A DNA stretch of 64,000 bases from Planctomycetota bacterium (GTDB lineage: Bacteria; Planctomycetota; SZUA-567; H5-PLA8), in assembly GCA_037129555.1 (NCBI GenBank), contig JBAXUS010000005.1:7086-71085 (forward strand). Reading direction: 5' to 3'. The notes below the pieces were generated by a model. The model was not told the DNA's origin and made no database searches. It was given only the letters and a program-made list of their open reading frames with translations. Below, piece after piece: positions 6,776-64,000 of the stretch; positions within the stretch are counted from its first letter, which is position 1; each line of letters starts with the position of its first letter. The position numbers and the translations under genes were made by a program.

Positions 6776-6888
6776 ATTTGTCATTTGTGATTTGTCATTT
6801 GGTATTTGTCATTTGAACAACAACAGCGCCTTCGCATCGGTCGCTGTTAAATGACAAATCACAAATGACAATTGACAAATGACAAATG
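6776..6888. repeat. AT-rich palindromic array: three direct copies of ATTTGTCATTTG (14-bp period) mirrored by three inverted copies (CAAATGACAAAT) around a 13-nt centre
   Basis: Read directly. Left arm is t-ATTTGTCATTTG-tg-ATTTGTCATTTG-gt-ATTTGTCATTTG-aacaacaacagcg. Right arm is cgctgtt-aAATGACAAAT-cac-AAATGACAAt-tga-CAAATGACAAAT-g. It lies between the rtcB stop (6767) and the ftsY start (7040). Confidence 0.85.
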
Positions 6889-37773: not shown

Positions 37774-38141
37774 GTAGAGCGCCCTTTCTTCCAGTACGTT
37801 TGAAGATGCCTATCAGGCATCGGTCTCGCTTCGCATAACGATCATCGGTCATTTTGAGCTTCGCCCGATACTCAATTCGGGAGAAAGCTGACGACACGTT
37901 GATGCGATAGCTATGTGACCCAAGTATTATCGGCCATTCGCACTGGGGGCTTCATAAAAATCTTCGCCTCATTTTAAGAGTTCTAATCGGCGCGCGAGAA
38001 TTCACCGAAAAGAAGAGTACACTCCGTAGTCTACCTCACGACGTGCACGTGTCTATCAAGTTGGCGAGGAAAAGTTGAGCGGAACTATGCACATGCGCTT
38101 TCGCAGGGTCGGAAGATTATGTGTACGCTTTGGCAGGGTGC

Positions 38142-38245
38142 CTTGGAGCAGTACTCTGCTCCAAGCCGTTAGGCGCGAGAGTAATTGAGGGAGAAGATTG
38201 TTTCAAGTGAGCGCGCAAAGGCACGGAGCAGGGTACTGCTCCGTG
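38142..38245. repeat. Two copies of a GGAGCAG-N4-CTGCTCC hairpin motif (10-bp stems) downstream of hisS
   Basis: 38142-38165 CTTGGAGCAG-tact-CTGCTCCAAG; 38222-38245 CACGGAGCAG-ggta-CTGCTCCGTG. A third copy at 45398-45415 is the exact reverse complement of the first 18-mer. Confidence 0.7.
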
Positions 38246-45397: not shown

Positions 45398-45415
45398 GGA
45401 GCAGAGTACTGCTCC
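45398..45415. repeat. Third copy of the GGAGCAG-N4-CTGCTCC hairpin (reverse complement of the 38142 copy)
   Basis: GGAGCAG-agta-CTGCTCC, 44 nt downstream of the NagB-LmbE stop and just inside the longest xylR ORF. Confidence 0.65.
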
Positions 45416-45436
45416 TTGGCACCGGCACATGTGATG

Positions 45437-48976: not shown

Positions 48977-49630
48977 ATGTCGAATGGCAAAGCGGTGTCG
49001 AATGAGACGGTGATTCAGCAGTTGAAGTGGCGTTACGCGACGAAGAAATTTGACGCGACGAAGCGCATTTCGGATGCGGATTGGAAGACACTTGAAGAGG
49101 TGCTGGTGTTGACTCCGTCGTCATTCGGATTGCAGCCGTGGAAGTTTTTTGTTGTCGTTACGCCAGCATTGAAAGAGAAGTTGGTTCCAGTATCGTGGGG
49201 ACAAATGCAGGTGAAAGAAGCGTCCCACACGCTGGTCATGGCGATCAAGAAGAATATGAATGCGGCGGACATCACGCGGTATGTTGAGCACACGGCGCAG
49301 GTGCGAAGCGTGCCGGTGGAGTCGCTCGAAAAGTTCAAGCAGGTGATGGTGAATTTCGCGACTCGTCCGGGCTTTGATGTGAATGCGTGGGCGAAGGATC
49401 AGGTGTACATTGCGCTCGGAAATTTCATGACGGCAGCGGCGATGCTGGGAATTGATACGTGTCCGATGGAAGGGATAGATCCGAAAAAGTACGATGAAAT
49501 TCTAGGACTCGAAGCGCTGGGATTTGCGACTGTTGTGGCGTGTCCGGCGGGGTATCGGTCCAGTGAAGACAAATACGCGGCGACTCCGAAAGTGCGGTTC
49601 GATCACGACGACGTCATTGGGCATTTATAA
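48977..49630 (+). CDS. NAD(P)H nitroreductase family protein
   Basis: Classic nitroreductase N-terminus (…RYATKKFDATKRISDADWKTLEEVLVLTPSSFGLQPWKFFVV…). Confidence 0.75.
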   Translation: MSNGKAVSNETVIQQLKWRYATKKFDATKRISDADWKTLEEVLVLTPSSFGLQPWKFFVVVTPALKEKLVPVSWGQMQVKEASHTLVMAIKKNMNAADITRYVEHTAQVRSVPVESLEKFKQVMVNFATRPGFDVNAWAKDQVYIALGNFMTAAAMLGIDTCPMEGIDPKKYDEILGLEALGFATVVACPAGYRSSEDKYAATPKVRFDHDDVIGHL

Positions 49631-49653
49631 ACGCGAATGGATCAAACGCACTT

Positions 49654-49732
49654 CACCCCTCACCTCGCGAGACGGAACGGCTGTCTCGTCGGTCCTCTCC
49701 CTCAAGGGGAGAGGGCAACAGCAACGGCTAGT
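49654..49732 (+). repeat. Structured ~90-nt repeat, copy 1 (most diverged)
   Basis: cacCCCTCACCtCGCGAGACGGAACGgCTGTCTCGTCGGtCCTCTCCCTCAAGGGGAGAGGGcaacagcaacggct. Stem 1 is CGAGAC/GTCTCG; stem 2 is CCTCTCCC-tcaa-GGGGAGAGG. Confidence 0.7.
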
Positions 49733-49826
49733 CCAAACCTGCTGCGAATTGTGAAGATCGTGTTGTGAGATTTGAGTCCGCTTGTATAGTCGAATTCTCT
49801 TGATTCGACATTTCGATAGACATTGG

Positions 49827-52391
49827 ACCGCCATGACTTCCACACCGCCAGACGCAATCGTAAAAGCATCATCGGCCTGGCGCACGGGCTATGCCGCCAA
49901 GCTGGGCGTGTTTGATGAGATGGTGTCCGCGCGGGGGGAAATCCATCCGCATTGGTCGAGTTTTGTCGAGCATATGGATGCGATGGGCGCGGCTGAAATT
50001 TCACGACGCTGGGAGTTGGCGCTGCGGACGCTTCACGAGAATGGCGTGTCGTACAACGTGTATGGCGATCCGCATGGAATCGATCGACCGTGGGTGTTGG
50101 ACGCGGTGCCGATGATGATTTCGGCGCGCGAATGGAGCGGCTTGGAGCGCTCGCTGATTCAACGCGCGCGTTTGTTGAATCTGATTCTCGCGGATATTTA
50201 CGGGCCGCAAAAACTGCTCAAAGAGGGTGTGCTGCCTCCGGAGTTGATCTACGCGCATCCGGGATTTTTGCGTCCGTGTCATGGCGTGGCGCTGCCGGGT
50301 AATCTGCATCTGCATTTGTATTCAGCGGACATAGCGCGTTCGCCTGATGGAACGTGGTCGGTGATCGGCGACGGGACGCAAGCGCCAGCCGGGGCGGGTT
50401 ACGCGCTTGAAAACCGCATCGTGTTGTCGCGTATTTTTCCGGATATTTTCAAAGAGTGTCATGCGCAGCGTCTGGCGATGTATTTCCGGCGTATCCGTGA
50501 AACGTTGCGCGGACTGGCGTATTACAATCGCGATAATCCGCGTATCGTTCTGCTCACGCCGGGGCCGTACCACGAGACGTATTTTGAGCACGCGTATCTG
50601 GCGCGGTATTTGAATTACACGCTGGTGGAAGGCGGCGATTTGACCGTGCGCGACCAGTGCGTGTATTTGAAAACGCTGGGTGGGCTGCATCGCGTCGATG
50701 TGATTTTACGGCGGCTGGATGACGACTATTGTGACCCGCTTGAATTGAATCCGGAATCGTTTTTGGGTGTGCCGGGATTGATGCAGGCGGTGCGCGCGGG
50801 GAACGTGGCGATTTCGAATCCGCTGGGCAGCGGGTTGGCGGAGTCACCGGCGTTGAAGCCGTTTTTGCCGGACTTGTGCAAGCATTTGCTGGGCGAAGAT
50901 CTGTTACTCCCGTCGGTGCCGAGCCATTGGTGCGGGAAGCGTGCGTCGATGGATTACGCGCTGGATAATCTTGAGCGGATGATTGTAAAAGCGTCGTATC
51001 CGGAGCGTGGGATTGAGTCTGTTTTTTGTGGGCGGCTGTCGATTGTTCAACGTGAAAAGCTTAAGGAAAAAATCCGGGCGCGACCCGCGTTTTATGTTGC
51101 TCAAGAGCAGGTGGAACTGTCGACGGCACCGGTGCTGGTTGAGAATCGGATACAGCCGCGACACGCAGTTTTGCGGACGTATCTCGCGGCGTCTGAAGGA
51201 ACGTACAGCGCTATGCCGGGCGGATTGACCCAGGTGCCGACGTCGGCTGAAGCGCATGTGTTTTCGTTGCAGCGCGGGGCCGGGAGCAAGGATACGTGGG
51301 TGCAGTCGTCGGGGCCTGTGAGCACCTTTAGTTTGCTCAGACCAAAGGGTGACGCGATTGAATTGACGCGCGGCGGGAATGATTTGCCGAGTCGCGTGGC
51401 GGACAATTTGTACTGGCTTGGGCGCTATGTAGAGCGCGCTGAAAATGCGGTGCGGTTGATGCGAGGAATCGCGAATCGGATTTCGGACAAATCGATATGG
51501 GGGGAAGTCCGAGAATTGTCGGACCTCATGCGCGCGCTATGTCACCAGGGTGGTATGGCATGTGGATTGGATTCGGTTCATTCGGCGGAAACGGTGACGC
51601 AAGGCGATGAGTTGACACTTCTTTTAGAACAGAGTCGTCGTCCGGGCGGATTGCATTCAACATTGCAGTCGCTGCAATTTGTGTCGCGAGCGGTGCGCGA
51701 TCGAATTTCCACGGATACGTGGCGCGTGGTAAACAGTTTGAACGAAGACGCGGTGTGGCCGGACGACTTGGATTCGACACGACTGAGTGAGATTATCGAG
51801 CGGCTCAACATGATGGTGACGACGCTGGCGTCGTTCGGCGGGTTGGCGAGCGAGAGCATGACCCGCGGGCAGGTGTGGATTTTTATGGACATGGGCCGGC
51901 GGTTGGAGCGGACGGTCAGCATGGCCGGGCTGTTGCGCAGCACGCTGGTGACGCCGGTGAAGGAAGACAGCACACTGCTCGAATCCGTCTTGGAAGTTGG
52001 CGATAGTTTCATGACGTATCGCCGCCGGTATTTGGCGAATTTGCAACTCGCGCCGGTGCTGGATTTGTTGCTTGCGGACGAGACAAATCCGCGCTCGATT
52101 GCGTTTCAATACGTGATGTTGAACGAGCATATTGAGAGTTTGCCGCGCGATCGGACGCTTGCGCATCTGTCGCCAGAACAGCGGGTGACGGTGGGTGGAT
52201 TGGCGTCGTTGCGGTTACAGGAAATTGAAGAATTGTGCCAGTTGGACGCGCAGGGCAAGCGCGGGAATCTCGCGCATTTGCTGACGCGCGTGGATGAAGA
52301 CATGGCGGCGCTTTCGGATATTGTCACGCGACAGTTCCTGAGCCACGCCCAAGCCTCGCGGCAACTCGCGAGTTTCAACATGGAAGGTTAG
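49827..52391 (+). CDS. Circularly permuted ATP-grasp type 2 protein fused to a C-terminal alpha-E domain
   Basis: N-terminal region matches the CP-ATP-grasp family (…HWSSFVEHMDAMGAAEISRRWELALRTLHENGVSYNVYGDPHGIDRPWVLDAVPMMISAREW…). The C-terminal ~300 aa begin with the alpha-E signature (…SRVADNLYWLGRYVERAENAVRLMR…). Start taken at MTSTPPD (49827). Confidence 0.7.
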   Translation, partial: TAMTSTPPDAIVKASSAWRTGYAAKLGVFDEMVSARGEIHPHWSSFVEHMDAMGAAEISRRWELALRTLHENGVSYNVYGDPHGIDRPWVLDAVPMMISAREWSGLERSLIQRARLLNLILADIYGPQKLLKEGVLPPELIYAHPGFLRPCHGVALPGNLHLHLYSADIARSPDGTWSVIGDGTQAPAGAGYALENRIVLSRIFPDIFKECHAQRLAMYFRRIRETLRGLAYYNRDNPRIVLLTPGPYHETYFEHAYLARYLNYTLVEGGDLTVRDQCVYLKTLGGLHRVDVILRRLDDDYCDPLELNPESFLGVPGLMQAVRAGNVAISNPLGSGLAESPALKPFLPDLCKHLLGEDLLLPSVPSHWCGKRASMDYALDNLERMIVKASYPERGIESVFCGRLSIVQREKLKEKIRARPAFYVAQEQVELSTAPVLVENRIQPRHAVLRTYLAASEGTYSAMPGGLTQVPTSAEAHVFSLQRGAGSKDTWVQSSGPVSTFSLLRPKGDAIELTRGGNDLPSRVADNLYWLGRYVERAENAVRLMRGIANRISDKSIWGEVRELSDLMRALCHQGGMACGLDSVHSAETVTQGDELTLLLEQSRRPGGLHSTLQSLQFVSRAVRDRISTDTWRVVNSLNEDAVWPDDLDSTRLSEIIERLNMMVTTLASFGGLASESMTRGQVWIFMDMGRRLERTVSMAGLLRSTLVTPVKEDSTLLESVLEVGDSFMTYRRRYLANLQLAPVLDLLLADETNPRSIAFQYVMLNEHIESLPRDRTLAHLSPEQRVTVGGLASLRLQEIEELCQLDAQGKRGNLAHLLTRVDEDMAALSDIVTRQFLSHAQASRQLASFNMEG

Positions 52392-52550
52392 TGGTTCGGC
52401 AATGCTAATTTGATAGATCTGCTTGCGTCTTTTTGCTTGGCTCTTCGTTGTATGCTCAGTTAGAGATTCATTAATATCTTCCTGAGCATACGCCTCGATC
52501 CAGACAAAAATACGCGGCGCATATCTATCAAATTAACCTTGCCGAACCAC
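52391..52550. repeat. 160-bp nested inverted-repeat element (28-bp terminal inverted repeats enclosing a 10-bp inner stem)
   Basis: Left repeat 52391-52418 GTGGTTCGGCAAtgcTAATTTGATAGAT. Right repeat 52523-52550 ATCTATCAAATTAaccTTGCCGAACCAC (25 of 28 complementary). Inner GTATGCTCAG (52450-59) / CTGAGCATAC (52482-91). The interior is AT-rich. It overlaps the stop codon of the ATP-grasp gene. Confidence 0.7.
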
Positions 52551-52581
52551 TCGCGGCTTTCGCGCCCGAGAAACAAAGCCC

Positions 52582-54108
52582 ATGCCTGACACCATCATCG
52601 CTGTGTCTAGTCCGTCTGTGAGTCTCGCGAACGCTTCGCCGGGAATGGTGCCATGCTCCATGATCCGGCTTTCGGGGCCGGATGCAGGGCGGTGCGCGGA
52701 TACGGTTTTTACAATCCATCAACCTGAACATACGACACGATCGGCGAGTTCGATTGGGCTTCGTCCGAAACATGAGGCGCATCGAATTCCGGCGACGGTG
52801 ACGGATGCGCTGTCTGAAAAAAAATGGCGACGAATTGTGGGACGAGTTGTGTGGCGGGGGAACGAGTTGAATGCGCATGTGTACGTCATGCCTGCGCCGC
52901 GCAGTTACACACGTGAGGATGTTGTCGAACTGCATGTGCCGGGATTGCCGTGGGTGGTGGAGACATTGTTGGATGGATTGATCGCGTCGGGCGCTCGGAC
53001 GGCGCAGCCGGGTGAATTTACGCGGCGGGCGTTTGAGCATGGTCGGATCACGCTGGAGCAGGCTGAAGCGGTTGGGAAATTGATTGCGAGTTCATCCGCC
53101 GATGAAGCGCGCGCGCATGCGTCTCAGTTGGCGGTTCATTCGGGTGTGCAGCGCCGGGTGTTGAAAAAAGACATTGAGGATTTGCTGGCGCAAGTGGAAC
53201 TCGGTTTGGATTTTTCGCATGAAGATGTAATCGTGATTTCGTTGGAGGAGATGGCGACTCGATTGGACGCGTTGCGGGCGCGGGCGGTGAAATTGGCGGA
53301 CGAATCTTCGCATGAATTTGAGCGGGCACCAGCGACGCGTGCGCCGCGCATTGTTCTTGTTGGGCCGACGAATGCAGGGAAGAGCCAGCTCTTTAATACA
53401 TTGTTGAAACGCGATGCGGCGATAGTGAGTTCGGAGCGGCACACGACGCGTGATGGAGTTGAGGCGGTGCTGAAATTTGGTGGCTCGGTTCCGGATGCCG
53501 TGTTGATTGACAGCGCTGGGAGCGGGGATTTAGGCGGAGTGGATGCGGAGCTTTTTTCGGCAGCGCGAACGGCGACGCGCCGGGAATTGGAGATGGCGGA
53601 TATTGTGTTGCTCGCGCTGGACCGATCGGTGGCGATGGAGCAGCAGGAGAATTTCGCAGCGTTATTGAAAGATGTGAAGGCGTTGACCCCAGCGTATTCG
53701 GCGTTGGTTTGGACGAAGAGCGATCTTGCGGCTCCTGCGAATTGGGATGCCGGGATGCAGTTGGGTTGGGACGTCACACAGCGATTTGAAGTGTCGTCGG
53801 TGTCGGGGCGCGGTGTTGATGCGCTGCGAGAATTTTTGGCTCAACGGACGTCTGAGTTGGCGCAACGGACCGCGCAGGCTCATGCGGCAGCGGGGGCGTC
53901 GGTGCGGGCATCGGCACTCAGTGCGGCTGATGCGCTTGAACGGGCGTCAGGCGCGTTGCGAGACGGATGTGGCGAGGATGTGGTAGCGGTAGAATTGCGC
54001 GAAGCGATTCACGCGTTTTGGCGGGCTGAAGGGATATTAATGCGCCACGATGCGGTGACGGAAGCGGCGCTCGATATTATTTTCTCGCAATTCTGCGTCG
54101 GAAAGTAA
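52582..54108 (+). CDS. mnmE: tRNA modification GTPase MnmE (TrmE)
   Basis: N-terminal …DTIIAVSSP… block, G domain (LVGPTNAGKSQLFNTL, DSAG), and the C-terminal C-V-G-K motif characteristic of MnmE. Confidence 0.85.
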   Translation: MPDTIIAVSSPSVSLANASPGMVPCSMIRLSGPDAGRCADTVFTIHQPEHTTRSASSIGLRPKHEAHRIPATVTDALSEKKWRRIVGRVVWRGNELNAHVYVMPAPRSYTREDVVELHVPGLPWVVETLLDGLIASGARTAQPGEFTRRAFEHGRITLEQAEAVGKLIASSSADEARAHASQLAVHSGVQRRVLKKDIEDLLAQVELGLDFSHEDVIVISLEEMATRLDALRARAVKLADESSHEFERAPATRAPRIVLVGPTNAGKSQLFNTLLKRDAAIVSSERHTTRDGVEAVLKFGGSVPDAVLIDSAGSGDLGGVDAELFSAARTATRRELEMADIVLLALDRSVAMEQQENFAALLKDVKALTPAYSALVWTKSDLAAPANWDAGMQLGWDVTQRFEVSSVSGRGVDALREFLAQRTSELAQRTAQAHAAAGASVRASALSAADALERASGALRDGCGEDVVAVELREAIHAFWRAEGILMRHDAVTEAALDIIFSQFCVGK

Positions 54109-54128
54109 CCTACGCTCCGACGCATTTT
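54095..54128 (+). terminator. Possible bidirectional terminator hairpin between convergent mnmE and dUTPase-like genes
   Basis: GCGTCGG-aaagtaacctacgct-CCGACGC followed by ATTTTAAT and then AAAAAAAA. The stem overlaps the mnmE stop codon. Confidence 0.4.
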
Positions 54129-54184
54129 AATCCAAAAAAAATTCGTGAAGATTCGCGTGATTCGATGTTCACATGCCGTTGCCG

Positions 54185-54637
54185 TTAAACAATCGCGCGG
54201 TTCTCGGCTTCGTTCTTTGTTTCCTTCGAATAACCGGTCTCCTGGCGGTTCTGGTTGACGCGGTGTTTGGCCGTGTAGAGGCGGTGGAATTCGTCGGCGG
54301 TGAGGCCGGACGCGAGCGCGAGGCTGGTGAGGAAGTGCATCAGATCGACGATTTCGACGCGGATGTTTTGGAGGTCGATTTTGTCCTTGCTCCACCACTT
54401 CCACAAGAGGTCGGCTTCAAGCTCCTGGGCTTCGCCTTGCAGTGCGCGGAGGTAGTTGCGGAGCCACAGATTCGGCAGTCCGTTCGGTCCCAATTCGCCG
54501 CGATCCAGGGACGCTTGAATGGAGGCCATTGTGAGCAGGTTGCCGTCGGGGCCGTGTATGTCCTGCTTCTTAAAAATGCCGTCGTTCAGTTCGCCTTGCA
54601 GCGTGAAAATGTCGTTGAGTTTGTCGGTCTCAGCCAT
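54185..54637 (-). CDS. All-alpha NTP pyrophosphohydrolase, dimeric-dUTPase/MazG-like family
   Basis: 150 aa with …LQGEAQELEADLLWKWWSK… (the E-rich metal-binding helix and WKWW motif characteristic of dimeric dUTPase-like enzymes). Confidence 0.45.
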   Translation of the reverse strand: MAETDKLNDIFTLQGELNDGIFKKQDIHGPDGNLLTMASIQASLDRGELGPNGLPNLWLRNYLRALQGEAQELEADLLWKWWSKDKIDLQNIRVEIVDLMHFLTSLALASGLTADEFHRLYTAKHRVNQNRQETGYSKETKNEAENRAIV

Positions 54638-54657
54638 GTCTTTTGCCTTCCTTTTCT

Positions 54658-56118
54658 TTAGAAACGGTCTTCGATTTTGACTACTTTGAATTGATCGAAC
54701 AGGCCAGCGCGCGCTTCGCTGATCAGCGTCATGTAGACGCGTTCTTCAACTTCCTCGAACGTCACGTCCTGTTTTTCGAGGCACTTGAAAATGTGCCAGC
54801 CATACGCACTGCGAACGGGTGCGGAGACTTCACTGGGTTTGAGTAAGACGGCTGCGTTGACGGCTGCTTGATCGAGCGGACGAGCGGGGATGGTGTCTTT
54901 GCCGATGCGACCGATGAGACCGTTGGCGCGTTTGGTTTTGTCGTCGGAGTATTTGCGAGCGGTTTCGTCGAAGTTGGTTTTGGCGAGATCGACGAGACCA
55001 TCGATCTTGGGCTTTGCATTTTGGAATTGAGTTTCGCGCGCTTGGCTCGAATAGGCATTGATTGCGGCATGGCCGTCGGCTTGCCACGCAGGGCCGTAGG
55101 GGTGGCCGTCGGGGTCGAGGACTTGGACGAAGATGTGCGCGATCAAACTTTCGGCGAGTTTGTATTTGGCGGGGCTGGCGGCGAATTCGGCCTGGAGTTG
55201 TTTCAAGCGGATGTTTTGTTTAACGAGGAGTGTGGCGAGCGCATCGAAGGAGAAGATGCGGCTCGTCAGATAATGTTCTGCGGTCATGCCGTGGCGTTGA
55301 ATGATCTGCATCATGATCGCGCGGCCGGGGACGCCGGTTTGTTGTTCTTTCAAACGGCACAGATAGCTGAAGTGAAATTTGCGGTCGTCATCGTTGAGCG
55401 CGAGGCCTTTTGACTTCGCGGCGGCTTGAACGAGGCGTTCGAGTTTCAACTGTTCGAGGATGTCGAGCAGCGCGCTTTTGGTGATCTGGCCCTCGGCTTC
55501 GAGAATGTATTGACGGACTTCATCGCGCGGATAGGAGCGGGTGCCGATGCGGACGGCTTCGCCTTTGCCGAGCTTAGCGGGTTCGGCTTCGACGCCGTTG
55601 AGTTGGATGAATTTCTCGACGAACTTGCGTTTCAAATCCTCGAACTGAGTGGTGTAGGTGCGAAGATCGGAGGCGAGTTTTTTGTCGTTGTGGAAGATTT
55701 TCATCAGCCCGAGATCGACGCGAACGGTGCGGCGCAGGGCTTCGACTACGCCAGCTCCGTAGCGGCGTTCGATTTCGTCGGCATTGATTCCGAGCACGCG
55801 CGCCTTGTTGTCGAGGGTGAGTTTGAGTTCGGTGTTGACTTCGGCCATGGGGACGTCGATTTTGGCGCGTTCGACTTCCTGTTTCCGGATGGCGTAATCG
55901 ACGAACGCCGGCAAATATTTTTCCCAGGCTTCTTCGACGAGTACGTCGAGTACGTCGCGTCCGAAGATTTCTTCACCGTTGACGATGCGGTACACTCGGC
56001 CTTCATCGATGTGGATGAGGGGTTCGTTGGGCTGTGCAAGTTCGGCTCGCAGAGATGTGGCGGCGAGCATGGCGGCGATGCAAAGAAGGAGTGCGTTTCG
56101 GATCATGATCGGCCTCAA
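54658..56118 (-). CDS. SurA-like periplasmic chaperone / parvulin-type peptidyl-prolyl isomerase
   Basis: Signal peptide; C-terminal parvulin block (…VSAPVRSAYGWHIFKCLEK…); long helical SurA-N-like region. Confidence 0.65.
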   Translation of the reverse strand: MRPIMIRNALLLCIAAMLAATSLRAELAQPNEPLIHIDEGRVYRIVNGEEIFGRDVLDVLVEEAWEKYLPAFVDYAIRKQEVERAKIDVPMAEVNTELKLTLDNKARVLGINADEIERRYGAGVVEALRRTVRVDLGLMKIFHNDKKLASDLRTYTTQFEDLKRKFVEKFIQLNGVEAEPAKLGKGEAVRIGTRSYPRDEVRQYILEAEGQITKSALLDILEQLKLERLVQAAAKSKGLALNDDDRKFHFSYLCRLKEQQTGVPGRAIMMQIIQRHGMTAEHYLTSRIFSFDALATLLVKQNIRLKQLQAEFAASPAKYKLAESLIAHIFVQVLDPDGHPYGPAWQADGHAAINAYSSQARETQFQNAKPKIDGLVDLAKTNFDETARKYSDDKTKRANGLIGRIGKDTIPARPLDQAAVNAAVLLKPSEVSAPVRSAYGWHIFKCLEKQDVTFEEVEERVYMTLISEARAGLFDQFKVVKIEDRF

Positions 56119-56230
56119 AAAACGCGGCGGAAAACGGATGTAGAGTTCCGGTGATGGCGTGGAATTGTAACCGAATTATCGTCCGATAATGAAGGTAAAA
56201 AGAGGGAAAATAGTGGAATGGAGCGGTTGA

Positions 56231-56330
56231 GATTAATCAGCGCCACCCCTCACCCCGCGAGCCGAACGGCTGGCTCGTCGGCCCTCTCCCTCAAGGGGAG
56301 AGGGGAAGGGCTACGGCTCGCTTTGCTCGC
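56231..56330 (+). repeat. Structured ~100-nt repeat, copy 2
   Basis: GATTAATCAGCGccACCCCTCACCCCGCGAGCCGAACGGCTGGCTCGTCGGCCCTCTCCCTCAAGGGGAGAGGGGAAGGGCtaCGGCTCGCTTtGCTCGC. It lies between the SurA-like gene start and the 3' end of the large minus-strand gene. Confidence 0.75.
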
Positions 56331-56337
56331 GTGAGAA

Positions 56338-59300
56338 TTACGCGTTGCGCGAGATGGGGTCGGCGCCCATGGTGCCGATGAGTTCGGTGAGGTGCTCTTT
56401 TGAGAGGACGTGGGCAAGCGTGGATTCGGCGCGTTGCAGGCGGTCTTTGATTTTCAGGCGCGCGATGGGTTCGGCGTGGCCGGGCTTCGCGAGGAAGGCT
56501 TTGATGTAGGAGATTGTGTCGGTCAAGTGCGCGGCGTCGCGGGACTGTTTGATTTTCAAACGCTCGTGATACCACTCGCTGGCGAGCAGGTAGTCTTTGG
56601 TGAACATGGCGCGGACGTCGGGGTGCGACGCGGTTTTGCCCTGCCATTCTCCGTGCGCCATAATGGCGATGATGGCTTGGAGCGGCGGGCATGCGTCGTC
56701 AATTGTTTCGTCTTCGACGTATTGCAACGCGACGCGTTTTTGAGCCTCGACAATGTTCTCGATGCCATCGACGAAGACGGCGAGGTTTTGCGTTTCGGGT
56801 TTCATCATGGCTTCGTCGAACACGGCAACCGGATTGTCGAAGACGCGTCCGAAGTAAACGTGGACGAAGCGGGTCGTGATGCGGTAGCCGAGGCGGCTTG
56901 CTGGGATGGTGCGGCCCTCGTAGTCGAAGTCATTCATCTTTTCGAAGAAGCCGTTTTCGATCATCTCCTGAATGTTGCGTTCGTCCGGGCGCAAGCGGCA
57001 CCAGATTTCCGGGATGAGGAGGCTGACGTCGTGGCCGACGGGGACGTTGGGACCGACGCAACCGGCGGCGGTCGTGAGGCCGTCGTGGCCGGTGAGGATG
57101 AAGGAGACGAGCGCGTTGTTGAGATCGGCTGTCGTTGGGAGCGCGTTGAAGGGGCCTTTGGTGAGCGCGCCTTCGGAACCTGCTCCGGTTGTCGACGGCG
57201 ATTTTCCGGTCAGGCTGCAAATGAAATCCATGAACAGCTCGGGCAGTTCCTGATAGTGGATCGGGTTGTAAACGGCGAGCGGGCGGATGCCGGCTTTGAG
57301 GTCAGGCGGATTGTTGCGACGACCGGCGAGGACGGCGTTGACAGGGAAAATGACTGGTGCATCGGCGGACAGACGGCGGTGCAAACGGGCACCGACTTCG
57401 GCGAGGTATTCGGTGATCGGATGGACGAGCGTCGGGCGGACTTGGAGGTAGCGCGGATTTTGCGTGGGCTTGCCGTCAACCAAACGCGGATGCGCGGACG
57501 AGACGAAGAATGTACCGTCGGCTTCGGTCGCGGCTTTGCGGATGAGCGCGCGCATGGGATCGGTGAATTGGCTGAAGTGGATGGAATCGTCGATGAGTTC
57601 GAGGGCTTCGTTGCGCGGCAGCGGTTGGAAATTGGAGATAAAATTGCCGGGCAGACTCATATCGAGTTCAGCTTGTTTATCGTAGCCGCGATGGATGGCG
57701 TCGTCGGGGCGCTGGAAGAAACGGTACTCGCAATTGTTGGTCAGTTTCAGCGAATGTGCATCCGCTGATTTGTAATACGAATCAACCCATGACGGCGGGA
57801 CGACGACGGATGCGGTGATGTCGTCTTCCATTTGGACTTTTTCAGCGGGAATAAAATCCTGGCGGAGCTTGTGTGTGCGCCAGGAACCGTCCTGCGTTTT
57901 TCCGACGCGGAGGTAGCTGCCGACGAGGCTGCGGCCGTTGAATTTCAATTCGTGTCCGGAGCTGCCGTTGACGTTGTCGACGCTGAAATGCGAGCGCCAA
58001 TCGTCGCCCCATTCCGGGCGGTGGAAGCGCTTGATGATGTAGACGAGTGCGAAAATGTGGTTCGGGATGGTCGCGAGCCACGCGTTGTATTCGGGCGTGT
58101 ATTCAATGACGGATGGCGTGAGCAATTTGATGACGGAGCCGAGCGAGCGCTGGGGGCTGAGGATCGGACGGGAGGTGTGCTCGTCGGTGAAGCGCCGGTA
58201 TTTGGGAAGGAAGCGGCCGCTGTAATTGCGCGTGATGATGGCGTCCACGTCGTCGAAATCTTTTTGTGCATCGGCAACGAAAACCGGGCCGTAGAGGACG
58301 GCATCGGTGATCGATTTGGAGAGTTCAGATTTGCCGCCGCCGGAGACAGTGCAGGGCTTGTGGCAGAAGGTCGGTTCGGCTTCGGTCCCGACGAGACGCC
58401 ACGATGGCGCGCCGGGATGTTTTTCGAGTTGGACTTTGTAACCCGACGGCATGATGTAGACGTTGCCGTTGAGGACTTTGACGCTCTGTTCTTTGCCGTC
58501 TTTTTGCCAGGACGCTTTTTGTGTAGCGAGGTCGAGGCGGACATCTTCGGGGACGTAGACGATGGTCGGGTATCTTTTATCGACGCCGTAGCCTTCGGGT
58601 TTGAAGTCGATGAAGTTGGAATAGAGGCGCTTCATTTCGACGAAGGAATGTCCTTCCATGTGCATGCGCCGGGCTGGGCGCGTGGCGTCGAGATCGTCGC
58701 CGTAATTGTAGCGCGGGAAGGCGAGGGCGCCGCCTGCGTGTTCTTCTTCGCAGAGACCGAAGAAATTCGCAGCCATGCTGATCTGGGTCTTCACTTCTTT
58801 TTTGCAGTAGCCGAAATAATTGTCGGCGATGATTGTGACCATGATGCCGTCCATCGAGCGGCAGACGAGCTTGAAGGCGCTGCCGCCGTTGTAGCACTCG
58901 TTGGCATCGCGCCAGCACATGCCGTCGGCGCGCTGGCGTTCGGTGGCGTCCTTCCAATTGGGGAGGCCCATGTCTTTCTTGCGAACGAAGACGAGGTGCG
59001 GCGCGAGAATCACGCAGCCGGTGTGGCCGGTCCAATGATCGACGTCGAGGCCGGCATCGTTTTCGGGTAGGTAGGGATCGCCTGCGTTGCCGAAGATGGA
59101 TTCAACGAAATCGAGGTTGGCGACGAGACTTCCCGGGGCGAAGAAGCGGACTTCCATCGTTTTTCGCTGCAATTTTCCGGGCACTTCGGGACAGACGATG
59201 GGGCGAAGGAGGAGCGAGACCATGATCTCGGCTTCATCGGTTGAGCTCATGGTGTACGGCAGTTTTAATAATTCTTTCGGCGGGTTCAATGCGGCGTTGA

Positions 59301-59823
59301 GCATGTTGCCGTAGACGCGTTTGGGGACGGCGATTTTGTCGGCGGGAACGGGGAGGCCGCCTTCGGCGATGTGGAAGACGCCTTTGGTGGTGCGCTTGTC
59401 ATTTTTCGGATTGTGAAGGACGCCTTGTTCGACGCGATACGAGCTACCGATTTCGGTTTCGAGGGTATTTTTATTGAGCGGAAGTGAGAGTTCGCGCGCG
59501 AGGCCGTGGCGGTCGAGCGTCAGGGTGTTGCGCGGAAGTTCGATGGGGCCATTGAGTTTGACGTCGGCGAAATGAGACGCGAGAAAATCCTGGATGCGGC
59601 GATCAGGTGGACAGAGATGGGACGAAAGCAGGCGGACTTTTTCGCGATAATTTTGGACGAGGTCATAGGCCATGTCCAAGAGTTCGGAGTCTTCATTCGC
59701 GCCGGGGGCTTTGAGGCCGAGGGCGGCGAGTTTCAGATTGATGTAGCGGACGATCAGGAGTCGTTCTTTTTCGGCCTCAACACCTTTTAATGGAGGGAAA
59801 CCCAGTGCTCGTTTTAAACCCAT
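56338..59823 (-). CDS. Very large soluble protein, tentatively PPi-dependent phosphoenolpyruvate carboxykinase (PEPCK3 family)
   Basis: Single 1161-aa ORF with no TM segment, no repeats, and none of the standard motifs of GTP/ATP-PEPCK, PEP carboxylase or PPDK. Size (~130 kDa) and overall character fit the PPi-PEPCK family described in Entamoeba, Propionibacterium and some PVC bacteria. The assignment is from memory of that family, not from a motif match. Confidence 0.4.
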   Translation of the reverse strand: MGLKRALGFPPLKGVEAEKERLLIVRYINLKLAALGLKAPGANEDSELLDMAYDLVQNYREKVRLLSSHLCPPDRRIQDFLASHFADVKLNGPIELPRNTLTLDRHGLARELSLPLNKNTLETEIGSSYRVEQGVLHNPKNDKRTTKGVFHIAEGGLPVPADKIAVPKRVYGNMLNAALNPPKELLKLPYTMSSTDEAEIMVSLLLRPIVCPEVPGKLQRKTMEVRFFAPGSLVANLDFVESIFGNAGDPYLPENDAGLDVDHWTGHTGCVILAPHLVFVRKKDMGLPNWKDATERQRADGMCWRDANECYNGGSAFKLVCRSMDGIMVTIIADNYFGYCKKEVKTQISMAANFFGLCEEEHAGGALAFPRYNYGDDLDATRPARRMHMEGHSFVEMKRLYSNFIDFKPEGYGVDKRYPTIVYVPEDVRLDLATQKASWQKDGKEQSVKVLNGNVYIMPSGYKVQLEKHPGAPSWRLVGTEAEPTFCHKPCTVSGGGKSELSKSITDAVLYGPVFVADAQKDFDDVDAIITRNYSGRFLPKYRRFTDEHTSRPILSPQRSLGSVIKLLTPSVIEYTPEYNAWLATIPNHIFALVYIIKRFHRPEWGDDWRSHFSVDNVNGSSGHELKFNGRSLVGSYLRVGKTQDGSWRTHKLRQDFIPAEKVQMEDDITASVVVPPSWVDSYYKSADAHSLKLTNNCEYRFFQRPDDAIHRGYDKQAELDMSLPGNFISNFQPLPRNEALELIDDSIHFSQFTDPMRALIRKAATEADGTFFVSSAHPRLVDGKPTQNPRYLQVRPTLVHPITEYLAEVGARLHRRLSADAPVIFPVNAVLAGRRNNPPDLKAGIRPLAVYNPIHYQELPELFMDFICSLTGKSPSTTGAGSEGALTKGPFNALPTTADLNNALVSFILTGHDGLTTAAGCVGPNVPVGHDVSLLIPEIWCRLRPDERNIQEMIENGFFEKMNDFDYEGRTIPASRLGYRITTRFVHVYFGRVFDNPVAVFDEAMMKPETQNLAVFVDGIENIVEAQKRVALQYVEDETIDDACPPLQAIIAIMAHGEWQGKTASHPDVRAMFTKDYLLASEWYHERLKIKQSRDAAHLTDTISYIKAFLAKPGHAEPIARLKIKDRLQRAESTLAHVLSKEHLTELIGTMGADPISRNA

Positions 59824-59898
59824 GCGTGTGTCCTAAAATGATTCTGATGTTCAAAAAGTGATGTACATGCTTTGGAAGCAGCGAACCGCATCCACCTT

Positions 59899-60867
59899 TT
59901 ATTTGGTGTTCAAAACGCCACTCAATTCGCTTGCCATCTTTAATGCTGCAGCTCGCGCGGCGGATGCAAAACCGCGTTCGCCGTGTTGGCTGTAAGCGGC
60001 TTGTTTGTACGCAAAGATGATGCCACGCGAATTGTTGACGATGGCACCTCGACCGTCGGAGCGGAAGCCTGCGGCTGCGTCTTGTGCGGAGCCGCCTTGA
60101 GCGCCGTAACCGGGGATGAGGAAATAGGTGTCGGGCATGAGAGCTCGGAGGGCGCGGGCTTCGTCGGGATAGGTGGCTCCGACGACGGCTCCGACATCGG
60201 AGAGTCCGCAGGTGCTGAGGTGCGGGCGGCCGATTTCGTGGACCATTTGGGCGACGTGTTCGCGGACGAAACGACCGTCTTGAAGTTTCAAGTCTTGCAA
60301 GTCGCCGCTGCCGGGGTTGCTGGTTTTGACGAGGACGAAGACGCCTCCGCCGTTTGCTGCTGCGGTTTTCAAAAAGGGTTCGAGCGTGTCGCGGCCCATG
60401 TAGGGATTGACGGTCAGGGCGTCGGCATTAAAAGGGGAGGTTGGGCCGCCGAGATGGGCTTGGGCGTAGGCTTCGGCGGTGGCTCCGATGTCGCCGCGTT
60501 TGGCGTCGGAGATGACGAGGAGGCCTTTTTCGCGGGCGTAGGCGCAGGTGGATTCGTAGGCGCAGATGCCGTCGGTGCCGAGTTCTTCGTAGAAGGCGAT
60601 TTGTGGTTTGCAGATGGGGACGATGTCGGAGACGGCGTCGATGATGGCTTGATTGAATTGAAGAAACGCGAGTGCTCGGGCGAGCGAGGTGTCGCCTTTG
60701 GATTGGATCGCGGCTTCGGTGATGAATTTGGGAATGCTGTCAAAACGTGGGTCGAGGCCGACGCAAATGGGGTTGCCTTTGGCGCGGATGGCGGCGTCTA
60801 ATCGGTCGGAGAAATGTTGCATGGTCGAGTCCTTTAAAGTCATAAATTGGTGCGCTGATTTTACCAC
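59899..60867 (-). CDS. pyrF: Orotidine-5'-phosphate decarboxylase, type 2
   Basis: …ICVGLDP… N-terminal substrate-binding block and …LVISDAKRGDIG… with the catalytic Lys. ~275 aa core; start may be 60822 (MQHFSD). Confidence 0.7.
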   Translation of the reverse strand: MVKSAHQFMTLKDSTMQHFSDRLDAAIRAKGNPICVGLDPRFDSIPKFITEAAIQSKGDTSLARALAFLQFNQAIIDAVSDIVPICKPQIAFYEELGTDGICAYESTCAYAREKGLLVISDAKRGDIGATAEAYAQAHLGGPTSPFNADALTVNPYMGRDTLEPFLKTAAANGGGVFVLVKTSNPGSGDLQDLKLQDGRFVREHVAQMVHEIGRPHLSTCGLSDVGAVVGATYPDEARALRALMPDTYFLIPGYGAQGGSAQDAAAGFRSDGRGAIVNNSRGIIFAYKQAAYSQHGERGFASAARAAALKMASELSGVLNTK

Positions 60868-60916
60868 AGAATGGCGTCTGAACGAAGTGATTGATGTGAC
60901 AAAATTCTGAAAATAA

Positions 60917-62185
60917 TTGACGTGCGCGCGGAATTGGGGACGATGTTTTCATATGCTTCACAGTGTCTTAACGAGTGCTGAAAAAACGCTGGGGTGCGTG
61001 CTGCGCGTGGACGGCGACATCGGGTTGCTTGAGCGGCCGCGCCGTGCGTTGCTGGTGTCGCGCGGGGAGCGGAATCCTGCGCCGGACGAGGCACGACTTT
61101 GCGCGGTGATTGATGCGGCGCGGAGTGTGGTGAGCTCGGGTGAGGCGCTGGTTGTTGGGACGGAGCGCGAGCATTGGGATGTGGCGTTGTGGACGTGTCG
61201 GGAGGCAGGCGGTGCTGCGATTGTGGTGTTGCATGAGCGCTCGGAGGCGGCGGAGTTTTTTCCGGAGAACGTGTTGTTGGTGTGGCCGGCGATGAGTGAG
61301 CCGGCGTTGAGTAAAGAGGAGCGGCTGTTGTTGCGCGATCAGCTTGTTGGGATGCTGGCGTCGTGTGCGACTGCGATTCAAATTCGGGCGAATGGGAATA
61401 TGGCGCGGGTGGCGGCGGATATGAGTGCGCGGGGATGTGGGGTTGAGGCTTGGGCGATTAAGAAGAGTGAACGGACGACTCGAAAACTGGATAGCGGTTT
61501 AGAGTTGGGGAGCGCCACCCCCTCACCCCGCGAGCCGAACGGCAGGCTCGTCGGCCCTCTCCCCGAGGGGAGAGGGGAAGGGCGGCGACTCGCTTCGCTC
61601 GTTGGATCTGAATTTGAGAAAATGGGTGACGCCTATTTGACTCATTTTACGCGCGAGCCGGATGGGTGTTGGCCGGGCGAGAGTCGGGGTGATTATGTGC
61701 GGTGGTTGGCTTCGGGAATTCGATTTGATCAGCGCGATGGGTTTCAGGCGCTGCGGCGGATTTTGAGTCAACGCAGGATTGTGTCGTGTGGGCGGCTTAT
61801 TAATGGTGGGACGCCGGTGGTGTGTTTGACGGCGCGTGATCCGGGTGAGTTGCTGGTTGAAAATCGGTGGCGAAAAGGGTTGGGGCGTTGGACGTATTCG
61901 CGATATGCGCTGTCGATTCGGCGGGATGTTTTGGAGGCGGCGGGTGCGCGAGTGGTGCGGTATGTTTCAGCGGACGTGATGCAGCTGGCTCCGATTTCTG
62001 AGCGTCATTTTTTGCAGATTGAAGCGTCGAGCGGAATCGATTGGCGGAATGAAGCGGAGTGGCGTGTGACGGGCGATTTGGATTTTTCGCGATTGGATTC
62101 TGGGGCGACGGTGGCGTGGGTTTCGAGCGAAACTGAAGCGGCGAGCATCGAGAGTGAGTTTGGAATTCGTGCGTTTTTGTTGTGA
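60917..62185 (+). CDS. Hypothetical protein: N-terminal divergent Rossmann-like domain (weak DprA/LOG/SLOG-superfamily resemblance) + C-terminal unknown domain, joined in-frame through a copy of the structured repeat
   Basis: One open frame of 422 codons. Both halves have coding-like periodicity. Residues ~200-232 (GSATPSPREPNGRLVGPLPEGRGEGRRLASLVG) are translated from repeat copy 3 (61511-61601). This may be one protein with an in-frame repeat insertion or two genes (second start MGDAYL at ~61622). Confidence 0.4.
   Translation: MTCARNWGRCFHMLHSVLTSAEKTLGCVLRVDGDIGLLERPRRALLVSRGERNPAPDEARLCAVIDAARSVVSSGEALVVGTEREHWDVALWTCREAGGAAIVVLHERSEAAEFFPENVLLVWPAMSEPALSKEERLLLRDQLVGMLASCATAIQIRANGNMARVAADMSARGCGVEAWAIKKSERTTRKLDSGLELGSATPSPREPNGRLVGPLPEGRGEGRRLASLVGSEFEKMGDAYLTHFTREPDGCWPGESRGDYVRWLASGIRFDQRDGFQALRRILSQRRIVSCGRLINGGTPVVCLTARDPGELLVENRWRKGLGRWTYSRYALSIRRDVLEAAGARVVRYVSADVMQLAPISERHFLQIEASSGIDWRNEAEWRVTGDLDFSRLDSGATVAWVSSETEAASIESEFGIRAFLL
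61511..61601 (+). repeat. Structured repeat, copy 3 (in-frame inside ORF 60917-62185)
   Basis: gcgccACCCCcTCACCCCGCGAGCCGAACGGCaGGCTCGTCGGCCCTCTCCCcgAGGGGAGAGGGGAAGGGCGgCGaCTCGCTTCGCTCG. The loop of stem 2 is changed (cga vs tcaa) without breaking the stem. Confidence 0.75.
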
Positions 62186-62216
62186 ATGTTGGGACGACTC
62201 TTTTGGAAAATGACCT

Positions 62217-62630
62217 GTGGATATTGAACCGAAGAAGCATGGCGTGATCGCGATTTTGCAGGACGCGGGTGGGCGATTTCTGGTGATTCGGCGCGGGCTG
62301 ACGTTGGAGCGTGCGCCGGGGTGGTGGTGTTTTGCCGGGGGCGAGGTGGAGCCGGGCGAGGTGTTGGAACGGGCGTTGGAGCGCGAAGTTTTTGAGGAGT
62401 TGGGATTGCGCGTGGCGGCGGGGGAGAAGGTGTATGAATCGGTGTCGCCGAATGGGGTGTATCGGTTGCATTGGTTTCGTGCGGAGTTGGTGGGGCCGGT
62501 GAGTGAGTTGTGTGCGCATCCGATTGAAGTGGCAGAGGCGCGATGGTTGTTGGGGGCGGAGATTTTGGAGTTGAGTCCGGTGTTGCCGGGGTTGATTGTG
62601 TGGTTGAAGGGGGGAGGCATGGATAAATAA
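62217..62630 (+). CDS. NUDIX hydrolase
   Basis: Nudix box GGEVEPGEVLERALEREVFEELGL (GX5EX7REUXEEXGU). Confidence 0.7.
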   Translation: MDIEPKKHGVIAILQDAGGRFLVIRRGLTLERAPGWWCFAGGEVEPGEVLERALEREVFEELGLRVAAGEKVYESVSPNGVYRLHWFRAELVGPVSELCAHPIEVAEARWLLGAEILELSPVLPGLIVWLKGGGMDK

Positions 62631-62640
62631 AACGCGCTTG

Positions 62641-62742
62641 GATTAATCAGCGTTTACCCCTCACCCCGCGAGACGGAACGACTGTCTCGTCGGCCCTCTC
62701 CCTCAAGGGGAGAGGGGAAGGGCGACGGCTCGCTTCGCTCGC
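62641..62742 (+). repeat. Structured ~100-nt repeat, copy 4
   Basis: GATTAATCAGCGtttACCCCTCACCCCGCGAGaCGGAACGaCTGtCTCGTCGGCCCTCTCCCTCAAGGGGAGAGGGGAAGGGCGACGGCTCGCTTCGCTCGC. Stem 1 carries the compensatory pair (CGAGAC/GTCTCG). Confidence 0.75.
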
Positions 62743-62761
62743 CTGAAGAAAAGCGGCGGGG

Positions 62762-63994
62762 TCAATCCTTGTTTCGGAAAATTCCGAAGCAGGAGGTGAA
62801 GCCGTGGATGTAGGTGGTGCCGCCGACGGGGCCGATTTCGCCGTTGCAGAAGAAGCCGCCGAGTGGGGCGTCGACGAATTTGTTGGCGAACGCGAGGCTG
62901 TCGTGGTCGGGTTTTCCGTAGAGGCCTTCGCCTCGGCCGAGGCATGAGAAGAGCAGGCCGCCGCGAGGTGGTGTTGGGAGCGATTCGCCTTTCATGGCGT
63001 TCATGCGTTCGGTGGAGTGACGCCAGAGGACGGCTTCGAGGTCGGCGGTTGCGGCGGCGGATTCGCGCAGATGGAATTGAACGGTCTGGCCTTCGTCGAG
63101 CAGCGCTCCGATGGCAAGGACGCCGCGATTGGCGTCCATGCCCACCAAATTGCGGATGAGGAAATCGCCGGGCAGGGGTTCGCCGGCTTTGAATGGGTCC
63201 ATCACAATTCCGAGGAAGAGCGACGAGCGGATCAAATCCTGTTCGCGTTCGTCAGCGGCTTCGAACAATTCCTGGAGCGCGAGCAAGGCGGGTTTTTTGT
63301 CGAGTTCGACGAGGAGATTTTTCTGGCAGCTGGTGATGCGCATCGGTTTTCCGATAGGGCGGCAGCCTTGTGCGACGAGGGTGTCGATTTCGATCTCTCC
63401 GGAGAAAGCGAGGCCGACGGCTCCGGTGCGGCGGAAGGTGCGGTCGAGGTAGAGCGCGTTTTGGCCGGGGCCGTTGGCTCCGCTGGCGAGGCCTCCGATC
63501 TTGGCTGATTGGGGGAACGCGTAGTCAAATCCGCGCAACATGTCTTCGGCGCGCGACATGCTGTACGGGTCGGCGACGATGACGAAATGCGGATTGTCGG
63601 CGGCGTGGACGGCGATGGCTTCTTCCCATTTTCGGGGCGGATCATCGAGGCCAGGAAGGGTGTCGTCGTCGAGGTGGAAGGGTGTGATGGTGACGTCGGG
63701 GAGGATCGCTGCGGTGATGGAAATCGCGGGCGCGTGTTCGACTTCGCGGCCTCCGCCGATGACGGCTCCGCCTGAGCAGCCGAGCAGGTGCTGGGGTTCA
63801 AGTCGCTTGTTCACGGCCGCTCCGGCCCGAGCGTAATTGGCGCGGTGCTGGGGCGAGATGAAGAGGAAGGCGACATCGGGTTTTTCGCCGTGCAGGTCGG
63901 TTGTGATTTTCGAGAGAACGTCATCGAGGGCTTTGTCGGTGTCGGCGTCGGTGCTGATCGCTGAGGCCCATTTCATTCCAATTTTAACAGTCAT
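62762..63994 (-). CDS. FIST-domain (FIST_N + FIST_C) sensory protein
   Basis: 410 aa. The N-terminal half (MTVKIGMKWASAISTDADTDKALDDVL…FLFISPQH…) and C-terminal half match the FIST architecture. Start codon is 6 nt from the window end. Confidence 0.55.
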   Translation of the reverse strand: MTVKIGMKWASAISTDADTDKALDDVLSKITTDLHGEKPDVAFLFISPQHRANYARAGAAVNKRLEPQHLLGCSGGAVIGGGREVEHAPAISITAAILPDVTITPFHLDDDTLPGLDDPPRKWEEAIAVHAADNPHFVIVADPYSMSRAEDMLRGFDYAFPQSAKIGGLASGANGPGQNALYLDRTFRRTGAVGLAFSGEIEIDTLVAQGCRPIGKPMRITSCQKNLLVELDKKPALLALQELFEAADEREQDLIRSSLFLGIVMDPFKAGEPLPGDFLIRNLVGMDANRGVLAIGALLDEGQTVQFHLRESAAATADLEAVLWRHSTERMNAMKGESLPTPPRGGLLFSCLGRGEGLYGKPDHDSLAFANKFVDAPLGGFFCNGEIGPVGGTTYIHGFTSCFGIFRNKD

Positions 63995-64000
63995 TTAGTG

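Follow-up and report, generated by a model that had tools for sequence, protein, structure and literature searches.

In the window analysed here, a stretch of 64,000 nucleotides from a Planctomycetota bacterium, one copy of a palindromic repeat (copy 3) lies in frame within a protein-coding gene. Our data indicate that this copy is very probably a genuine insertion of a non-autonomous hairpin repeat, REP/REPIN-like and RPE-like in character, in the disordered linker of a single native gene. In the program-generated list of open reading frames, the gene is part of a 422-codon ORF starting at TTG (60917..62185, forward strand). The database protein of the locus, P0001 (410 aa, locus tag WCT04_01755, from a MAG assigned to Planctomycetota), starts at ATG 60953, in agreement with the N-termini of aligned orthologues, and was found in one assembly only, on MEGAHIT contig k141_28269. 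The frame had been described in the initial annotation as free of stops through the repeat, and it does read across 61511-61603. The features of the gene and of copy 3 are listed below, in window positions.

60953..62185, forward strand: host gene, encoding P0001, an uncharacterised protein of two domains with 30 homologues
60953..61450, forward strand: N-terminal domain, residues 1-166, DprA/SLOG-like Rossmann fold (AlphaFold2 pLDDT >90; Foldseek)
61451..61510, forward strand: native linker between the domains, left part, WAIKKSERTTRKLDSGLELG, which aligns with the variable linker of orthologues
61511..61603, forward strand: core of repeat copy 3, 93 nt or 31 codons, translated SATPSPREPNGRLVGPLPEGRGEGRRLASLV (profile E=3.6e-32; ends uncertain by a few nt)
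61519..61529, forward strand: conserved box CCCCTCACCCC in copy 3
61530..61551, forward strand: hairpin 1 of copy 3, GCGAGCC-GAACGGCA-GGCTCGT, then C to give CGTC; the stem is variable and covarying
61555..61576, forward strand: hairpin 2 of copy 3, CCCTCTCCCC-GA-GGGGAGAGGG
61577..61603, forward strand: right arm of copy 3, GAAGGGCGGCGACTCGCTTCGCTCGTT; the family has two alternative modules in this place
61604..61633, forward strand: right part of the native linker, GSEFEKMGDA, with ATG 61622 inside it, non-conserved as a start
61634..62185, forward strand: C-terminal domain, with conserved motifs YLTHFTREPDG and EAEWR (AlphaFold2 pLDDT 88.7 when modelled alone)

To avoid circularity, the profile used to delimit copy 3 was built from 19 other copies, with copy 3 itself left out. 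The resulting match spans 61511-61614, with high posterior probability to approximately 61603, so that the extent first proposed for the repeat (61511-61601) was accurate, and the translation then given, GSATPSPREPNGRLVGPLPEGRGEGRRLASLVG, corresponds exactly to P0001 residues 186-218. The left part of the linker may bear a weak, non-significant resemblance to the left arm of the element. Copies in two related loci, L035 and L060, share 95-97% identity with copy 3; on this sequence similarity the insertion is probably recent, and its tolerance over the long term is a tentative reading. Purging of stop codons by mutation in the left arm of copy 3 was considered and rejected, as the consensus arm is equally open in that frame.

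With the complete ORF as query, 30 homologues of 36-52% identity were retrieved, each spanning both halves in a single protein. The full-length homologues comprise 369-442 aa and cover 89-99% of the query, while three truncated ones comprise 248-276 aa. In the family alignment, two conserved blocks flank a stretch that is variable in both length and sequence. Between the VExW and YLTHFTREPDG motifs this linker measures 30-50 aa in orthologues (median 34) and 62 aa in P0001. The excess is accounted for by the 31 repeat codons, since subtracting them from 62 returns a value inside the native range; what is left, WAIKKSERTTRKLDSGLELG plus GSEFEKMGDAY, is a linker of ordinary native length. All 38 family-invariant residues are kept in P0001.

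The closest orthologue, P0002, is found in L008 and L009, where the genes are arranged as in the window (gene, NUDIX, convergent FIST). The element is missing there from both the linker and the NUDIX-FIST gap, the latter two genes being 10 bp apart versus 131 bp in the window, and the contig carries a copy of the element elsewhere. Copies 3 and 4 are thus insertions relative to an element-free orthologous arrangement. Comparison of orthologous loci, which the initial annotation had proposed as a check, returned one gene in the homologues and, in L008, a gene without the element. The proposal that a palindromic element had inserted in frame as a linker is upheld by the orthologue alignment, by the empty orthologous site and by the predicted disorder of the location.

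The structure of P0001 was predicted with AlphaFold2, run on a 25-sequence alignment. Both domains were modelled confidently (mean pLDDT 86.8, pTM 0.83), and the sole segment with pLDDT <50, residues 177-216 (window 61481-61600), coincides with the element. Foldseek matched the N-terminal domain of the model to DprA, ShosA, Moco-carrier and LOG proteins (E=1e-6 to 1e-3), and the half first described as Rossmann-like can be specified as a SLOG/DprA-type fold. For the C-terminal domain, all fold matches in the PDB were non-significant; the top ones were the ADP-ribosyltransferase-fold proteins DarT, Tpt1 and exotoxin A, so that an ADP-ribosyltransferase fold may be taken as a lead, not as an assignment. 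The C-terminal half had been called unrelated to the N-terminal one. The two do have different folds, yet they always co-occur, and the wording is misleading in that respect. No match to the host protein was found in Pfam, NCBIfam or PADLOC, and a profile search of PDB sequences likewise gave no name.

The remaining copies in the window are intergenic, as had been noted from the sequence; the flanking genes were confirmed by Pfam where a family exists, and the copies abut stop codons.

49629..49746, forward strand: repeat copy 1, intergenic between a nitroreductase and an ATP-grasp gene, overlapping the nitroreductase TAA
56220..56338, forward strand: repeat copy 2, intergenic between a 1161-aa ORF and a PpiC-type gene, ending at the stop of ORF 56338..59823 (reverse strand)
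62630..62750, forward strand: repeat copy 4, intergenic, with the convergent NUDIX and FIST genes on either side, missing at the orthologous L008 site

Each of the intergenic copies lies within 0-1 nt of a stop codon (49628-49630, 56338-56340, 62628-62630). Copy 4 runs from the NUDIX stop to 13 nt short of the FIST stop. In copies 1 and 4 the TAA is found within the left end of the element itself (TAAACGCG and TAAAACGCG, respectively), so the element may provide the stop and last codons of those genes. A scan of 49000-64000 against Rfam (E<=1) gave no match on any copy. The same interval contains 28 sites resembling a terminator (a GC-rich hairpin with a T-run behind it), and all of them lie outside the copies.

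The family unit is modular. It consists of an optional left arm (AAACGC..GGATTAATC..GCGTTT), the invariant CCCCTCACCCC box, hairpin 1, CGG, hairpin 2 (CCCTCTCCC-loop-GGGAGAGGG) and a right arm that is one of two alternatives. Head-to-head dimers are frequent, as in L001, L047 and many metagenome loci. Profile searches of 1.2 Mb of related Planctomycetota loci produced 204-212 matches, representing approximately 177 distinct copies, all of them with hairpins, and a scan of JGI metagenomes yielded at least 116 stretches. Many of the copies counted come from the window's own population, since L013, an independent JGI contig, is 100% identical to window 62402-64000. When GTDB genomes and JGI metagenomes were scanned by pattern, the element was seen, among the matches listed, solely in Planctomycetota MAGs and a few metagenomes. 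The family is apparently undescribed: an abundant, modular, palindromic repeat of uncultured Planctomycetota.

The stem of hairpin 1 is kept by compensatory change, with strong covariation. At least 7 contiguous end pairs are formed in 44 of 51 distinct variants, which use 13 different stem arms between them; when the 3' arms were shuffled among variants, the number reaching this level averaged 8 and never exceeded 19. Nearly all of the listed variants read CGTC at the end of hairpin 1 (...CTCGT|CGG), the CGT itself being part of the stem. Predicted folding energies of the copies range from -42 to -64 kcal/mol, moderately better than those of shuffled sequences (z = -1.9 to -2.9). A tblastn search of the 1.2 Mb of fetched loci, with E. 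coli RayT as query, found no RAYT-like gene and gave just a spurious match antisense to uvrB.

Whichever of the three forward frames is read, 152-168 of approximately 175-177 distinct copies have a core free of stops (~90%). An open frame across copy 3 is therefore unremarkable, and the actual constraints on in-frame insertion are a length that is a multiple of three and a permissive target. All 204 profile matches were screened for copies with an open frame of >=90 codons on both sides, and only copy 3 and the copy in L047 survived. Other intragenic candidates (e.g. L003, L006, L060 and L070) were rejected as antisense ORFs or as 5' extensions upstream of the true start. In L003 (3155-4450), L006 (4868-7819) and L060 (613-1923), ORFs of downstream genes run through upstream intergenic copies because the element core is stop-free; such extended ORFs comprise, for example, 431 aa and 983 aa, and their true starts are later signal-peptide Met codons. 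The stop-free core is likely to be a source of mis-annotated N-termini in the MAGs concerned, and accounts for false 5' extensions of ORFs and for the short 'hypothetical proteins' that annotation pipelines place near such repeats.

The second survivor lies in a protein unrelated to P0001. L047 encodes P0032, a 'putative zinc-binding protein' of 461 aa with two matches to Pfam DGC, whose orthologues comprise 407-431 aa and are up to 84% identical. The length difference corresponds to an element dimer (L047 8606-8816) that makes up the whole interdomain linker. A second orthologue, P0036 (L128, a contig from 3 samples), has a 60-nt element core, translated LPLTPRASTLVGPLPGVEG, in the same linker. 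The three in-frame cases (copy 3, L047 and L128) differ in frame and orientation, so they share no common element peptide. It is conceivable, though rather unlikely, that this family has repeatedly supplied linkers between domains, with three in-frame copies in two unrelated two-domain proteins and a DGC linker that is wholly element-derived in two diverged orthologues. Were this so, selfish hairpin repeats would repeatedly create or replace linkers in the lineage, paralleling, in free-living bacteria with large genomes, what RPEs do in Rickettsia.

The insertion reading can be set out as a sequence of steps. A RAYT-type tyrosine transposase would have mobilised the element in trans, in the form of single-stranded hairpin DNA, and the element would have inserted in DNA specifying a linker that was already variable in length and sequence. 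The gene stays open because the inserted core, 93 nt or 31 codons, is G+C-rich and stop-free and the target stretch was variable beforehand. The insert would presumably be translated, and the protein would keep both folded domains while its linker lengthened from ~31 to 62 aa by a stretch that is rich in Pro, Gly and Arg and probably disordered. Function of the host protein would continue.

Several other explanations were weighed against a tolerated insertion. A recent insertion could instead have damaged the gene, leaving a nascent pseudogene whose frame is open merely for want of time. The close identity of copy 3 to other copies fits this scenario, as does the rarity of intragenic copies (2 loci among ~177 distinct copies in a gene-dense genome), which would imply that most intragenic insertions are purged. 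However, there is no stop or frameshift, 38 of 38 invariant residues are kept, both domains are modelled confidently, and the insert is confined to a linker that naturally varies between 30 and 50 aa; moreover, the DGC protein has kept its in-frame copies across several assemblies and samples and in two diverged orthologues. We consider a nascent pseudogene quite unlikely. Selection acting on the insert itself, whether on mRNA hairpins of the in-frame copy (through interdomain translation pausing or as an RNase target) or on the encoded peptide, would be consistent with the stable structure predicted over 131 nt at copy 3 (-63.5 kcal/mol, z=-1.9) and with the recurrence of elements in interdomain linkers. 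The fold z-scores are modest, however, orthologues manage without the element, and the three in-frame cases, differing in frame and orientation, offer no common peptide for selection to act upon. Such exaptation seems highly improbable.

Collapse of the repeat or a mis-join during assembly could also have placed the element in the gene. The source is a metagenome assembly with the gene on a single contig, and L013, the independent contig from the window's population, stops a short way downstream of it, at window 62402. Against this, the two flanks correspond to the two halves of a single orthologous gene and keep its order and frame, unlike the product of a mis-join, which would link unrelated loci. 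The 93-nt core is also shorter than the final k-mer of 141 (taken from the contig name), so that k-mers should bridge the element and its unique flanks, and comparable in-frame cases occur in independent assemblies. An assembly or sequencing artefact is very unlikely. The least probable of the alternatives, to which we attach next to no weight, is that the element fused two separate genes, one Rossmann-like and one starting at MGDAYL. There is an ATG at 61622 and the halves differ in fold, features from which the initial annotation had offered, as one alternative, a readthrough fusion of two genes and an independent start for the second. Every homologue found (30/30), element-free ones included, nevertheless carries both halves in one polypeptide, and the Met of MGDAYL is non-conserved and positioned within the native linker. 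With insertion in a native linker as the favoured explanation, the annotation is settled: WCT04_01755 is one intact two-domain gene with a repeat-derived linker segment, not a fusion and, very probably, not an artefact.

Copy 3 is a known kind of event, as seen in Rickettsia and other bacteria (RPEs and intragenic REPs). In-frame RPEs are classic in Rickettsia, and in-frame ORFs have also been noted for other MITEs, namely ERIC, BOX and Anabaena MITEs (PMC10969869). Copy 3 has in common with the RPE phenomenon a multi-copy palindromic family, shorter orthologues that are element-free and a permissive linker site. As RPEs are portrayed in PMC10969869 and PMC3733652, the elements are alike in being palindromic high-copy repeats of ~100-150 bp that occur in frame in genes, at a permissive site and with the flanking protein intact. 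CGTC at the hairpin end, reported there for RPE-4 and RPE-6, has a parallel in the CGTC after hairpin 1. The host phylum, Planctomycetota, differs, and the likeness is one of description. The extent of gene invasion differs as well: nearly half of the members are intragenic in some RPE families (Ogata et al. 2000, as related in PMC10969869 and PMC3733652), whereas the Planctomycetota element is intragenic in ~1-2% of copies, and its in-frame cases share neither frame nor peptide.

Di Nocera et al. described GTAG- and CGTC-tagged REPs in eight phyla, Planctomycetes among them, which are mostly head-to-head dimers near gene 3' ends, and REP-'decorated' proteins with 20-82 extra residues, among others in the PVC bacterium Opitutus terrae (PMC3733652). 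Like the GTAG/CGTC REPs and the REPINs mobilised by RAYT (PMC3733652, PMC3116915), the present element is a short hairpin with a variable, complementary stem, frequently forms head-to-head dimers, lies between unidirectional or convergent genes tight to their 3' ends, and has occasional intragenic copies. In contrast to REPs and REPINs, its unit is longer and composite, ~90-120 nt with a box, two hairpins and alternative arms, and in this it resembles mosaic BIME-like elements more. The stems also depart from those of CGTC-1 to CGTC-4 REPs, which are 8-9 bp and start with A/T pairs (PMC3733652). Membership of the REP/REPIN group is plausible, not established. With bacterial MITEs (ERIC, BOX, Anabaena; PMC10969869) it shares a small size, non-autonomy, a mostly intergenic location and occasional in-frame fusion to host ORFs. 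No clear TIR or TSD was seen at the insertion sites, in empty-site comparisons with relatives too diverged to fix the element ends (for the host gene, homologues of <=52% identity). The in-frame cases contribute a handful of clean non-Rickettsia examples of selfish palindromic DNA absorbed in disordered linkers, each accompanied by element-free orthologues and a structure prediction.

Some further observations concern the host gene and its family. The order host gene, NUDIX, convergent FIST is common to window 60953-63994 and L008 369-3205, where the orthologue is 52% identical, and the three genes may form a conserved module related to nucleotides or ADP-ribose. The NUDIX protein next to the host gene matches the PADLOC candidate PDC-S07. 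The orthologue P0010 (442 aa) has an N-terminal extension of ~55 aa that is missing from other family members; it is Cys/His-rich (CPND...CEVCGG...CAVH...CSRC) and zinc-ribbon-like. The longest element-free linker, 50 aa, belongs to P0011 (L129 10538-10693) and includes the hairpin-forming CCGGCGGGACGCCGGTGCTCCCGG (peptide RRDAGAPG). We examined it as a possible further repeat: the GC-rich hairpin stretch is not repeated in its own 11-kb locus or in the other fetched loci, and is at most a candidate for a different, decayed repeat.

Other repeats were noticed in the window. A second family is present at 52389-52551, immediately downstream of the ATP-grasp stop codon (gene 49782..52391); the element is 163 bp, MITE-like in appearance, with 33-nt terminal inverted repeats (91% complementary), and 90% identical copies occur in L062 (3873-4035) and L089 (11930-12092). 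At 6776-6887, in a window of 56% G+C, there is an AT-rich, near-perfect palindrome of ATTTGTC heptads with 39-nt arms, 90% complementary and 34 nt apart. The palindromic motif GGAGCAGAGTACTGCTCC occurs at 38137-38162 and 45398-45423, in inverted orientation and 7.2 kb apart, and a similar hairpin with an AGTAC loop adjoins an element in L076. The GGAGCAGAGTACTGCTCC motif may constitute another REP-type family.
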